DNA of 64,000 nt from contig DASZWM010000002.1 of assembly GCA_035546615.1 (NCBI GenBank), positions 1 to 64,000 of the forward strand, written 5' to 3'. This document shows, piece by piece, positions 34,000 to 36,878 of this stretch (positions within the stretch are counted from its first letter, which is position 1; the number at the start of each line of letters is the position of its first letter). The notes below the pieces were generated by a model, which had not been told where the DNA came from, did no database searches, and saw nothing but the letters and a program-made list of their open reading frames with translations. A program made the position numbers and the translations under genes. Origin of the DNA: Minisyncoccota bacterium. Its GTDB lineage: Bacteria > Patescibacteriota > Minisyncoccia > Phycocordibacterales > SBAW01.

Positions 34000-35301
34000 A
34001 TGTCCACGTTCCAAATCGTCGTCCTCGGCATCTTTTCTTCGCTTATCCTTATAGGCGTCGGCGTGTTCGCCGCCTTTGGCGGCGTGCTGGGCGGCGCGGC
34101 CATCGGCCCGGTTACTATTTGGGGCACGCTTGATAGGAACACGATGGACGGTCTTATAGAGGCCCTGCGCGCGGAGGACAAGGGCTTTGAAACCGTTACC
34201 TATGTGCAGAAAAGCGAAGCCGCGTACGAGGGCGACCTGGTAAACGCCATGGCATCCGGCTCCGGCCCCGATCTGTTCCTCCTTTCGGGCGACGAGGTGC
34301 TCCCGTTTTCCGACAAGATACTCACCATTCCGTACGGCTCCATTTCGCAGGGAAGCTACTTAGCTTCGTACGTGGACGAGGCGCAGCTATTTTTGACGCC
34401 GCAGGGCGTGCAGGCGCTGCCCTTCACGCTCGACCCCCTCGTGATGTACTGGAATCGCGACCTTTTCGCCTCCGCCGGCATCGCGTCGCCGCCGAGCGTC
34501 TGGAGCGAGTTTTTGACGCTGGCGCCCAAGATAACCTCGCTCGATACCCGGTCCACCGTGCAGAAAAGCGCGGTGGCACTCGGCGAATGGCGCAACATTC
34601 CGCACGCCAAGGATATTCTTGCCGCCCTGTTCATGCAGGTGGGGGACACTATCGTCGCCCGCGACGGTGCCGGAGCGCCTACGGTTACGTTCGGCTCGGA
34701 GCCCGAAGGCTCGGCCGGCAATCCGGCGGAGTCGGCCCTGCGCTTCTATACCGAGTTCGCAAATCCTTCAAAGACCAGCTACTCGTGGAACCGGGCGCTG
34801 CCTCCGGCGGCTGACGCGTTCGTGTCGGGCGACGTGGGCGTCTACTTTGGCTTCGCAAGCGAGTATACGGAAATTAGCCAGCGCAACCCTAACTTGCGGT
34901 TCGGCGTCGCGCTTCTGCCGCAGATAGACCAGGGCGGAAGCCGGGTCACCTACGGCGACATCACCGGCATCGCTATAGCGCGCACGGCAGCGAACGTTAA
35001 AGGCGCGCTTACGGTAGCGCAGATACTCTCGGGCAAAACATCGGTCGGCATTATCTCCGGAGCGCTCTCCTTGCCGCCCGTTCGGCGCGATGTCGCGGTG
35101 GATACCGCATCCAGCGCCACAGCGGGCGTCTTCGTGCAGTCGGGGCTTATCGCGCGCGGCTGGCTTGATCCGTCCCCGAAAGGAAGCGATACCGTGTTCC
35201 AGACCATGATAGAATCCGTGGTGAGCGGCAAGGAGGCGCCCGCCACTGCGGTAAGCGAAGGCAAGGGGGCGCTCAGCGAGCTGCTGCCGTCGACCAGATA
35301 A
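34000..35301 (+). CDS. Membrane-anchored extracellular solute-binding protein (SBP_bac_1/MalE-like)
   Basis: N-terminal TM anchor. MalE-like landmarks IWGTLD, GSGPDLFLLSGDE, LVMYWNRDLF, PxxW. No ABC permease or ATPase gene adjacent. Confidence 0.5.
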   Translation: MSTFQIVVLGIFSSLILIGVGVFAAFGGVLGGAAIGPVTIWGTLDRNTMDGLIEALRAEDKGFETVTYVQKSEAAYEGDLVNAMASGSGPDLFLLSGDEVLPFSDKILTIPYGSISQGSYLASYVDEAQLFLTPQGVQALPFTLDPLVMYWNRDLFASAGIASPPSVWSEFLTLAPKITSLDTRSTVQKSAVALGEWRNIPHAKDILAALFMQVGDTIVARDGAGAPTVTFGSEPEGSAGNPAESALRFYTEFANPSKTSYSWNRALPPAADAFVSGDVGVYFGFASEYTEISQRNPNLRFGVALLPQIDQGGSRVTYGDITGIAIARTAANVKGALTVAQILSGKTSVGIISGALSLPPVRRDVAVDTASSATAGVFVQSGLIARGWLDPSPKGSDTVFQTMIESVVSGKEAPATAVSEGKGALSELLPSTR

Positions 35302-35304
35302 GCG

Positions 35305-35787
35305 ATGAAACTATTTTTCTTCAAGCATAAGGAAGTCATGCGCGTGCTATTTACGGTGACAATATTCTTATTGCCAATCATAGCTCTTGGGGCAACTTCT
35401 TCGGGCGGCAATACGTTGCCCACGTCCTCCGGCGGCAACACCTTGCCGACCTCCTATGGCGGCAATACGGCAAATTCAGGCGACAACTGCGACCCCAGGG
35501 TCCAGGTATGCAACCCGCTCCAGTTCCATAGCATCTGCGGCCTGGTGACCGGCGTGTTGGATGCCATCATGGTAATCGGCATTCCGATAGCTATAATGTT
35601 CGTCGTATGGGCCGGATTTAAATTCGTCGTAGCGCAAGGCAATCCGGAATCCATTTCACAGGCTAAAACCAATTTTCTGCATGTCATCATCGGCATCGCC
35701 ATATTCGTGGGTGCTTCGCTAATCGCGCATGTCATCATGCAAACGATCGAAAATCTCGGAGTGACCGGCATTAGTTCCTGCCAATAA
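35305..35787 (+). CDS. TrbC/VirB2-like two-TM pilin-like protein with Gly/Ser repeats
   Basis: Signal peptide, GGNTLPTS repeats, Cys pair (CDPRVQVCNP...SICG), then two hydrophobic helices with a WAG motif. Homologous to the N-terminal region of 47773..48873. Confidence 0.5.
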   Translation: MKLFFFKHKEVMRVLFTVTIFLLPIIALGATSSGGNTLPTSSGGNTLPTSYGGNTANSGDNCDPRVQVCNPLQFHSICGLVTGVLDAIMVIGIPIAIMFVVWAGFKFVVAQGNPESISQAKTNFLHVIIGIAIFVGASLIAHVIMQTIENLGVTGISSCQ

Positions 35788-35788
35788 T

Positions 35789-36145
35789 ATGCCGCTCACC
35801 GCCGCCGCTACGCTTTCAAACCAATCGTCGCTCAAAGATGTCGCATTATTCGCGGTGGAGATTCTCAACTCCCTGGTTCCGGTCCTCCTGGTGCTTATCC
35901 TCGTGCTCTTTCTCTGGATAGGGGTGCAGTATATCTACCGGGCCGACGGTGAGAACAAGGCCTCTACCCGGGAAGCGATTCTCTGGGGGCTTATAGCGCT
36001 ATTTGTCGCCTTCTCAGTGTGGGGAATAGTGCGCCTGGCTTGCAGCACGCTTCTTGGCACCAGCGAATGCAGTTCAGGCAGCAGCGGTGGAGGGGGAAAT
36101 GCAAACCAGGCGCCGCTCAATATCATTCCCGAATCGGCCCGCTAA
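35789..36145 (+). CDS. Small two-TM pilin-like protein (tandem paralog)
   Basis: Two TM helices with conserved VWG/IWG spacing shared with 36225..36572 and 36579..36878. Confidence 0.45.
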   Translation: MPLTAAATLSNQSSLKDVALFAVEILNSLVPVLLVLILVLFLWIGVQYIYRADGENKASTREAILWGLIALFVAFSVWGIVRLACSTLLGTSECSSGSSGGGGNANQAPLNIIPESAR

Positions 36146-36224
36146 GCTAAAAACTATCCACACGGCCGCCTTGTGCCGGAGCGCCCCGCGGCATACAGTT
36201 AAGCCATACCCATTTAATACTCGT

Positions 36225-36572
36225 ATGAAAAAAACAGCACTTATCTCATCTCTTTTGTTCGCCTTGCCGGCGTTCGCCTTCGCTCAGGTGCAGGGTAACA
36301 ACCTCCAGGGGCTTATCGCATGGCTGGGCGATACGCTCAATATGCTCATTCCGGTCCTTATCGCGCTCGCGCTCGTGGCATTCTTCTGGGGATTGGTCCG
36401 CTACGTTTGGGGTGCAGGCGGCGAAGGCGCAGCTGACGGCAAGAGCATCATGATAGCAGGGCTCCTTGGCCTTTTCATCATGGTGTCCGTCTGGGGCATC
36501 ATCAAGCTCGCGCAGAATACCCTTGGCGTTAACAACAGCAACGCTCCTCAATATCCGCAGGTTCCGCGCTAA
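36225..36572 (+). CDS. Small two-TM pilin-like protein with signal peptide (tandem paralog)
   Basis: Internal Met MKKTALISSLLFALPAFAFAQ (signal peptide) of ORF 36054..36572. Two TM helices (FFWGLVRYVWG...VSVWGIIKL). Confidence 0.45.
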   Translation: MKKTALISSLLFALPAFAFAQVQGNNLQGLIAWLGDTLNMLIPVLIALALVAFFWGLVRYVWGAGGEGAADGKSIMIAGLLGLFIMVSVWGIIKLAQNTLGVNNSNAPQYPQVPR

Positions 36573-36578
36573 CCGGGT

Positions 36579-36878
36579 ATGAACAACGCGGCGGCGGTTA
36601 CCGTGTCGGGCCAGTGCATAGACAGCGCGCGGCTCTTTGCGGGCTGCCTGGCTGACCTCATCATCAATCCAATACTGCTGCTCATATTCGTAGCGGGGCT
36701 CGTCGTATTCATTTACGGCATTGTCGAGTTCGTCTGGGGCCTTTCCGCGAACGGCGAGGAAAAGGAGAAAGGGAAGCAGCACATGCTCTACGGCCTTATC
36801 GGCATGTTCATCATGGCGGCGGCCTTCAGCATCATAAAAATAATTGCCAACACGATCGGCGTCTCGGTGCCGCACTAG
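36579..36878 (+). CDS. Small two-TM pilin-like protein (tandem paralog)
   Basis: Same architecture: FVAGLVVFIYGIVEFVWG, then a K/E-rich loop, then MFIMAAAFSIIKI. Confidence 0.45.
   Translation: MNNAAAVTVSGQCIDSARLFAGCLADLIINPILLLIFVAGLVVFIYGIVEFVWGLSANGEEKEKGKQHMLYGLIGMFIMAAAFSIIKIIANTIGVSVPH

Follow-up and report, generated by a model that had tools for sequence, protein, structure and literature searches.

Why should a gene for a membrane-anchored solute-binding protein (SBP) be followed, in one operon, by four genes for small pilin-like proteins, with neither a transporter nor a secretion machine encoded beside them? The question is raised by a locus at 33433-36878 (plus strand) of a 64-kb window, by which we mean the whole stretch of DNA analysed here (contig DASZWM010000002.1, positions 1 to 64,000). 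The DNA belongs to the core chromosome of a metagenome-assembled genome of Candidatus Paceibacterota and, apart from this locus, carries genes for FtsZ, FtsA, signal peptidase I, S1, GyrA, IF2, RbfA, ClpB, TopA, RelA/SpoT and 13 tRNAs. Patescibacteria, to which this organism belongs, comprise a large share of bacterial diversity and are host-dependent. As far as sequences can tell, the operon is core-chromosomal in Paceibacteria and the linkage of its genes is obligate in the relatives examined. It hints at a pilus-like structure tied to binding or uptake from the host. Our preferred reading, to which we give a probability of roughly 0.4, is that the operon encodes one envelope assembly, probably a pilus or stalk built by a type IV secretion system (T4SS), in which the SBP would be the ligand-binding part.

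The conserved unit consists of six genes, which encode a methyltransferase, the SBP and the pilin-like proteins P2, P3, P4 and P5. These and the elements between and behind them are as follows (lengths in amino acids, aa, or nucleotides, nt).

33433-33990, plus strand: small class I S-adenosylmethionine (SAM)-dependent methyltransferase, 185 aa (Pfam Methyltransf_31/11/25), first gene of the unit
34000-35301, plus strand: membrane-anchored family-1 SBP, 433 aa, an N-terminal transmembrane helix followed by a MalE-like two-lobe domain
35338-35787, plus strand: P2, 149 aa, with signal peptide, repeat-rich hypervariable linker, two-helix hairpin and conserved Cys67 and Cys148
35404-35465, plus strand: 27-nt tandem repeat, coding for GGNTLPTS(S/Y) in the P2 linker
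35789-36145, plus strand: P3, 118 aa, two hydrophobic helices, no signal peptide, Gly/Ser-rich C-terminal tail
36154-36199, plus strand: putative internal promoter, non-coding, conserved across dozens of species in position and sequence
36225-36572, plus strand: P4, 115 aa, clear signal peptide (…AFAFA↓Q), two helices, conserved P.VP C-terminus
36579-36878, plus strand: P5, 99 aa, two helices, no signal peptide, always the final gene of the array
36893-36924, no strand assigned: GC-rich 14-bp hairpin from a terminator scan, between P5 and the convergent gene 36940-37761

Gene order and its conservation

Relatives of the operon were collected with the SBP, at one genome per species, which yielded 252 relatives; the best 80 (40-73% identity) were examined and, together with a public contig identical to the window, form a set of 81 loci. 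These 80 are Paceibacteria of Adler-, Kaiser-, Nomura-, Zambryski- and Wolfebacteria types. The order methyltransferase-SBP-P2-P3-P4-P5 is kept in all of the approximately 70 species-level genomes with enough flanking sequence, and pilin genes stand directly 3' of the SBP gene wherever the contig permits (~70 loci). Between the SBP stop codon and the first pilin start the median distance is 0 nt, and in 20 of 71 loci the two genes overlap by 4 nt; a methyltransferase homologue lies directly 5' of the SBP gene in 77 of the 81 loci, at a median gap of 11.5 nt. A reverse search with a P4 profile, covering 80 metagenome loci, found the SBP in all 36 loci with at least 400 nt of sequence 5' of the first pilin gene and a partial SBP in seven more, the sole nominal exception being a 1.2-kb fragment. 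Taken together, the searches from the SBP side and from the P4 side recover the same gene order in well over 100 independent loci. Genes come and go on either side of the unit, never inside it. Thus, the SBP, which the first-pass annotation had regarded as an orphan, is an obligate operon partner, whether the search starts from the SBP or from the pilins.

The pilin genes are equally fixed in their positions. Arrays hold four pilin genes in 42 loci, five in 16, six in four and seven in two, and in the 42 four-gene arrays the best cross-genome match falls at the same array position in 163 of 168 cases (P4 in 42/42 arrays, P5 in 41/42, P3 in 39/42). Orthologues are 37-44% identical, as against 25-38% for paralogues within a genome, and each position has a conserved signature of its own that is held across orders. 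The earlier idea of an expanded pilin family therefore gives way to four fixed, ancient positional orthologues. More distant genomes have an extra pilin after the SBP, which resembles the N-terminal domain of the product of another gene of the window (47773-48873, described below). Separately, five loci (L009, L011, L026, L033 and L083) contain a mini-gene of 71-78 aa, weakly P4-like, between SBP and P2, as at L083:11316-11543.

Variation within the arrays is concentrated in one segment, the mature N-terminal linker of P2 (residues 20-58, 35395-35510), which ranges from 12 to 49 aa among orthologues and is composed to 76% of G, S, T, P, N, A and Q. The GGNTLPTS repeats noticed at the outset are confirmed as a 27-nt tandem repeat of 2.3 copies (Tandem Repeats Finder, score 82); other species often have different repeats at the same place, for instance GPNAG or SSPIVAPA. 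The composition and turnover of the linker suggest a surface-exposed, fast-evolving segment. The Cys pair attributed to P2 needs qualification, as the protein has four cysteines, of which two are conserved (Cys67 in 39 and Cys148 in 41 of 45 orthologues); these two flank the hairpin at its two ends. Such variability could be taken as the sign of a cassette for antigenic or host-range variation, in which the paralogues would be interchangeable major pilins, a role that has been suggested for arrays of Bartonella, Anaplasma and some Patescibacteria. The hypervariable P2 linker and the low identity of the paralogues, which is like that reported for Patescibacteria arrays (~25%, PMC12102498), would fit this explanation. 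However, every position is an ancient orthologue across orders, copy number is stable (mode 4, 42/72 arrays), and variation is restricted to the P2 linker rather than affecting whole genes, so that we hold a variation cassette to be highly improbable.

The gene calls on which these comparisons rest are largely those made at first sight. All five plus-strand genes called from 34000 onwards are real according to the list of open reading frames (ORFs) and an independent gene caller, which picked the same starts on the identical 5.3-kb public contig. Of the size range initially given for P2-P5, the lower end of 99 aa (P5) stands, while the upper end, a 160-aa P2 starting at 35305, is replaced by a 149-aa form, whose ATG at 35338 carries an AAGGAAG ribosome-binding site and was chosen by the independent gene caller. 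Gaps of 1-7 nt, reported throughout the array, apply to P2-P3 (1 nt) and P4-P5 (6 nt) and not to P3-P4 (79 nt) or to SBP-P2 (36 nt, or 3 nt with the longer P2); between methyltransferase and SBP there are 9 nt. The longest methyltransferase ORF begins at 33379 and the 185-aa form at the ATG at 33433. Two further calls were deemed spurious, namely a TTG start for P4 at 36054, which overlaps P3 and is unused in relatives, and an antisense ORF at 36246-36875. The hairpin behind P5 is likely a bidirectional terminator that ends the operon. Upstream of the methyltransferase lies a divergent minus-strand ORF of 87 aa (33097-33360) with no Pfam match, and 3' of it a perfect palindromic hairpin, ACAAGCCCCCGCGGGGGCTTGT, at 33075-33096. 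An Rfam scan of the window returned tRNAs only, none of them inside the operon.

The proteins and their missing partners

The SBP was described by the first-pass annotation as a membrane-anchored, MalE-like protein, and this is borne out by Pfam, by the predicted fold and by its N-terminal transmembrane helix. It scores 73.6 bits against SBP_bac_1 (PF01547; cut-off 26) and 62.4 bits against SBP_bac_8, and is identical to HVV14878.1 (Ca. Paceibacterota). Its AlphaFold2 (AF2) model, with a predicted local distance difference test (pLDDT) score of 83.9, shows a MalE-like fold preceded by one N-terminal helix (residues 3-25). Foldseek places oligosaccharide-binding proteins at the top (5ci5, T. 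maritima MalE2, 2zyo; E ~1e-20, template-modelling score 0.66-0.72), and the nearest solved relatives by sequence are sugar-binding proteins as well, the best being 4r9f (E 5.5e-11). The alternative of a lipoprotein fails, as the protein contains no cysteine at all and hence no lipobox; with one N-terminal transmembrane helix and no cysteine, it must be regarded as anchored in the membrane and not lipidated. Residues 1-42 (34000-34125) comprise an uncharged MSTFQ and then a Gly-rich hydrophobic helix, with no positive N-terminal charge. A class III (type IV pilin-like) signal was not recognized in the SBP, which begins directly with MSTFQ and shows neither a leader nor charged residues. The anchor is conserved as strongly as the globular domain, F4, Q5, G19, F23 and G36 each being kept in at least 80% of 77 sequences, and such conservation is unusual for a signal anchor.

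These properties bear on an alternative in which the SBP and the pilins share their regulation and yet work as physically separate entities. The SBP would then feed an unlinked ABC (ATP-binding cassette) importer of CUT1 type, the pilins would serve a T4SS, and the operon would be shared through a common need at the host interface or through inherited synteny. The SBP is indeed a normal-looking MalE-like protein with many invariant polar and aromatic residues, SBPs encoded away from their permeases are known, and synteny in the clade extends over the whole surrounding region (upstream S1, a metallo-hydrolase and GyrA; downstream RbfA-IF2). Nevertheless, the unit is never interrupted in spite of the turnover of flanking genes, start and stop codons overlap, P4-type pilins are never found without the SBP, and the SBP anchor is unusually conserved. 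We therefore consider a mere sharing of the operon rather unlikely.

The first gene of the unit is less telling. The methyltransferase matches only generic class I families in Pfam, NCBIfam and the PDB, and its closest solved relative is 3dh0, a SAM methyltransferase of unknown function (E 9e-21).

For P2-P5, signal and transmembrane prediction agrees with the original description of two hydrophobic helices in each protein and adds a signal-peptide-like N-terminal hydrophobic segment in P2 and P4. The full VirB2-type layout of signal peptide, two helices and short loop is accordingly found in P2 and P4, and its helices only in P3 and P5. The conserved (V/I)WG spacing that had been claimed holds for P3 and P4, which have VWG in helix 2; the agreement is only partial for P5 (VWG after helix 1) and P2 (VWAG). 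Assignment to the TrbC/VirB2 type, also proposed at first, depends on the profile used. Against PF18895 (T4SS_pilin; gathering threshold 26.6 bits), P2 and P3 score above the threshold with 36.3 and 34.0 bits, P5 and P4 below it with 23.3 and 17.4 bits. Against PF04956 (TrbC/VirB2; gathering threshold 27.9 bits), P2 with 22.8 bits (E 1e-4) and P4 with 11.7 bits both remain under it, although about one third of P2 orthologues have a precomputed PF04956 match and several are named 'pilin' by NCBI. P4 and P5 are nonetheless homologous to the family, because the orthologue profiles of P2 and P4 match each other (hhalign 96.7%, E 3e-10) and a single family hidden Markov model (HMM) built from all positions scores P2-P5 at 96-130 bits, with P4 at the top (130) and P5 at 97.

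In tblastn against plasmids, P2 gave weak matches (E 0.02-0.7), nearly all on genes annotated as 'pilin' (haloarchaeal) or 'TrbC/VirB2 family protein' (Macrococcus), which sit within conjugation clusters. The P2 profile aligns with the Macrococcus TrbC/VirB2 family protein, so named by the NCBI annotation pipeline PGAP, across both helices (hhalign 94.5%, E 7e-8, 34% identity), and with the Haloarcula pNG500 pilin at 73.9%, with the GNP turn and the C-terminal Cys aligned. Among PDB sequences the top match of the P4 profile is the pKM101 TraM pilin 8cw4, a weak match (E 0.014) that is suggestive only, and the P2 profile retrieved NuoK-type noise only. NCBIfam gave sub-threshold matches only, to NF045849, a pilin-like family of Mycoplasma integrative and conjugative elements. 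The AF2 model of P2 is a helix-turn-helix hairpin (66-98, a QGNP turn, 103-139) after the signal peptide and a disordered linker. Profile and HMM comparisons thus show that P2-P5 belong to the PF18895/VirB2-like family of two-helix pilins; with regard to TrbC/VirB2, these comparisons support relatedness at the superfamily level and not strict membership of PF04956.

A fifth PF18895 protein is encoded in the window at 47773-48873 (366 aa, 28.4 bits) and has a Cys-rich C-terminal extension of ~245 aa with 16 Cys. A promoter, CTTGTC…TGCTACAAT, lies very near its ATG, so its mRNA may be leaderless, and it is followed at 48877-49485 by a single-helix membrane protein of 202 aa.

What the window lacks was seen correctly from the start. 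ClpB is the sole ORF with a Walker-A motif of the form G..G.GK[ST] in the 64 kb and the LSGGQ motif is absent, which means that the window contains no VirB4, VirD4 or ABC ATPase; neither an ABC signature nor a permease was detected in the window or in the flanks of any related locus. The pilin genes thus do not adjoin a virB3/virB4/virB6 cluster, as those of VirB2 pilins would be expected to do, and the SBP gene has no adjacent genes for a cognate permease and ATPase. Within the 10-kb flanks of the relatives, a lone ORF resembling a type IV coupling protein occurs in L076 only. Of four related assemblies in Table S1 of PMC12102498, two are VirB4-positive (Gr01-1014_56 and Adlerbacteria RIFCSPLOWO2_01_FULL_51_16).

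In view of these absences, a membrane complex independent of any T4SS has to be weighed, in which the eight pilin helices and the SBP anchor would combine into a hetero-oligomer working as a channel, transporter or sensor that depends on the SBP; in it, the VirB2-like fold would serve as a co-opted membrane module and not as a filament subunit. A fixed set of subunits, in which each position is held by one gene and is strictly orthologous across genomes, would suit such a complex, as would an SBP that is obligate in both search directions, its conserved, Gly-rich and uncharged transmembrane helix, the lack of linked ABC permease/ATPase or virB4 genes at any locus, and the VirB4-negative status of two of the four related assemblies. 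On the other hand, there is no precedent for an SBP-dependent transporter made of VirB2-like hairpins, and the operon has no energy-coupling component. The nearest relatives of the family outside the candidate phyla radiation (CPR) lie in conjugation clusters, and the hypervariable, repeat-rich extension of P2 suits an exposed surface more than a buried channel. On balance, we regard a T4SS-independent complex as unlikely.

The P3-P4 spacer and the surrounding sequence

The gap between P3 and P4 is conserved in length (median 75 nt in 41 arrays, 79 nt in the window) and contains an element that a generic promoter scan missed and that was found only through alignment of the spacers. In the window, it consists of a DnaA-box-like CTATCCACA (36154-36162), 8 nt, a -35-like TTGTGC (36171-36176), 17 nt and a -10-like TACAGT (36194-36199); in relatives, the orthologous -10-like site is usually preceded by TGn. 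Among 35 aligned spacers, TATCCACA is at least 85% conserved. The composite motif occurs on the plus strand in 20 loci and on the minus strand in none, and is unique within the window, and ATCCACA is present on the plus strand in 83 of 122 arrays versus 12 on the minus strand, at the expected distance from P5. The classical DnaA box is TTATCCACA. We interpret the spacer element as a putative internal promoter for P4-P5, possibly modulated by DnaA. If P4 and P5 are expressed from a promoter of their own, this would fit P4 as an abundant subunit, and the resemblance to a DnaA box suggests a regulatory link to replication, reminiscent of the T4SS genes located beside dnaA (PMC12102498).

A second site of the same architecture is located at 3013-3110, where ~11 nt separate TTATCCACA (3013-3021) from TTGTCC and 17 nt separate TTGTCC from TAGTAT. 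A short hairpin (~3079-3093) with a T-run lies roughly 10 nt past the TAGTAT. The whole site is situated between a LamG-domain gene and tRNA-Gly, and could specify a small RNA or a leader controlled by the same factor as the P3-P4 element.

Downstream of the terminator-like hairpin are two convergent genes.

36940-37761, convergent: four-helix membrane protein, 273 aa, in 6 related loci
37761-39035, convergent: SPFH/Band 7 protein, in 11-15 related loci

Both were considered as members of the system and rejected, because they are present in few loci. Elsewhere in the window, 39195-40000 holds four tRNA genes (Leu-taa, Leu-tag, Lys-ctt and Cys-gca) on alternating strands between the SPFH gene and rbfA-infB. 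The region 3-2968 encodes two adjacent large secreted proteins with Laminin_G_3/concanavalin-like lectin domains, which are candidate host-adhesion proteins. Finally, 57507-62158 encodes an AcrB-type resistance-nodulation-division (RND) pump (1034 aa, 612 bits) and an HlyD-type membrane-fusion protein, an odd find in an organism thought to have no outer membrane.

A proposed assembly and known systems

How might these genes work together? In the T4SS-built pilus or stalk that we favour, the pilins would be inserted via Sec or YidC, with cleavage of P2 and P4 by the signal peptidase I of the window (19894-20475). The pilins would then be extracted and polymerised by the VirB4/VirB6 machinery of Patescibacteria, encoded elsewhere and typically near dnaA, into a short pilus or stalk that passes through wall and S-layer. 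P4 is the candidate for the abundant or major subunit because of its own putative promoter and its central sequence, whereas P2 would be the exposed, variable subunit, in which a Cys67-Cys148 disulfide would act as a staple in place of the head-to-tail cyclisation seen in TrbC/VirB2. The SBP may ride on the structure, or dock to it, by its transmembrane helix, in the manner of VirB5 in diderm systems, and would bind an oligosaccharide-type ligand derived from the host, either as an adhesin or as the capture step of uptake. The methyltransferase is presumably co-transcribed with the SBP and the pilins.

Several points weigh against such a pilus or stalk. No pilus has been observed. We know of no T4SS pilus with four obligatory subunits or with an SBP. 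P3 and P5 have no signal peptides, and a search of the 64-kb window and of the 10 kb around the operon in about 80 relatives found neither virB4, virB6 nor another T4SS gene; the Saccharimonadia pilin array, unlike this operon, lies inside a T4SS cluster. The two remaining related assemblies of PMC12102498 Table S1, both drafts, are VirB4-negative. The synteny of the whole neighbourhood means that conserved adjacency weighs somewhat less than it would in a shuffled genome. A Foldseek search of the P2 model against the PDB gave no match better than E = 2, a result that counts neither way, since a bare helical hairpin does not discriminate.

A bolder reading would make the operon a substrate-capture device of a kind not recognised before, a VirB2-like filament or channel with the SBP as an integral part, which would import oligosaccharide-type or other host-derived molecules without an ABC permease and be tied to the cell cycle by its DnaA-box promoter. 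We find this reading doubtful. If true, it would be the first direct genetic link of a T4SS-type pilus to nutrient import.

Among known systems, the conjugative pilins RP4 TrbC, Ti VirB2 and pKM101 TraM and the Macrococcus pJEK46-1 proteins are similar in having a signal peptide, two long hydrophobic helices and a short polar turn, and the TrbC/VirB2 homology of the present proteins is detectable by profile. The difference lies in the four obligatory paralogues, compared with one major pilin in conjugative TrbC/VirB2 systems, and in the lack of adjacent VirB3, VirB4 and VirB6. Furthermore, TrbC and VirB2 pilins are cyclised head to tail, where P2 has an N-to-C Cys pair. VirB5 (TraC/TrwJ), the tip adhesin of diderm T4SS pili, is not a pilin; it has an N-terminal hydrophobic helix, is located in the membrane at first, and is proposed to travel on the growing VirB2 polymer and so to provide target binding. 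The SBP may be compared with it by functional analogy only, as the SBP has a type-II periplasmic-binding-protein fold and no relation to VirB5 in sequence or fold.

Two other systems bring SBPs together with surface structures or conjugation. In the Sulfolobus bindosome (Bas) of Zolghadr et al., small pilin-like proteins reportedly assist the assembly of sugar-binding proteins at the cell surface. Here, too, in a cell that lacks an outer membrane, a sugar-type SBP has functional and genetic ties to small membrane proteins of pilin-like build; the resemblance is functional only. The Bas pilins and bindosome SBPs have type IV pilin-like (class III) signals and need a PilB/PilC-type ATPase and membrane protein, whereas the small proteins of the present operon are of VirB2 type and its SBP anchor is uncharged and appears uncleaved. 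PrgZ (pCF10) and TraC (pAD1) are family-5, OppA-like peptide-pheromone receptors, which are encoded on Gram-positive conjugative plasmids and use a chromosomal transporter. Like them, the present SBP is encoded with a T4SS-related system of a monoderm; unlike them, it belongs to family 1, resembles MalE and is encoded in an operon of the core chromosome.

The closest comparison is with Patescibacteria themselves, in which VirB2-like pilin enrichment and arrays, as assumed by the first-pass annotation, are documented (PMC12102498, PMC10633639). Of 3,035 Patescibacteria genomes, 2,417 have VirB4; VirB2-like genes are found in 1,948 assemblies and near virB4 in 1,135 of these, and T4SS genes occur next to dnaA (PMC12102498). 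The same study counted 441 arrays of 2-11 pilin genes with paralogues ~25% identical, and suggested host-range or antigenic versatility (PMC12102498). In the one genetically tractable Patescibacteria species, the T4SS and VirB2-like pilins are essential (PMC10633639); in Southlakia epibionticum, six essential PF18895 genes, SEML1_0014-0019, lie inside the T4SS cluster, and no SBP is found there (PMC10633639). T4SS-pilin proteins are among the top-expressed secreted proteins of cultured Paceibacteria that parasitise methanogens (PMC10936435). A 2025 review considers these systems unique among monoderms in their pilus-making potential and speculates on uptake from the host, with the pilus as a conduit (PMC12857230).

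Tandem VirB2-like arrays are thus already published, and the kind is known. With four tandem pilins of low paralogue identity, and 4-7 in relatives, the present array falls within the range of such arrays, and resembles them in its divergent, small two-helix PF18895 proteins of ~100-190 aa as well as in its host, a monoderm ultrasmall epibiont, with no relaxase-type conjugation context. It differs from arrays such as that of Southlakia in lying away from the virB4 cluster, in an operon with an SBP and a methyltransferase, and in having class-wide fixed positional orthologues and a conserved internal promoter, as predicted, before the third pilin. No paper linking an SBP to pilins was found in the literature searched, and the operon architecture, the fixed set of orthologous subunits, the separation from virB4 and the internal promoter, none of which is described there, appear to be new. 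Not every Patescibacteria pilin array, then, is a variable cassette: this one behaves like a multi-subunit machine, and a class-wide pilin-SBP operon gives the uptake-conduit idea a concrete, testable handle.

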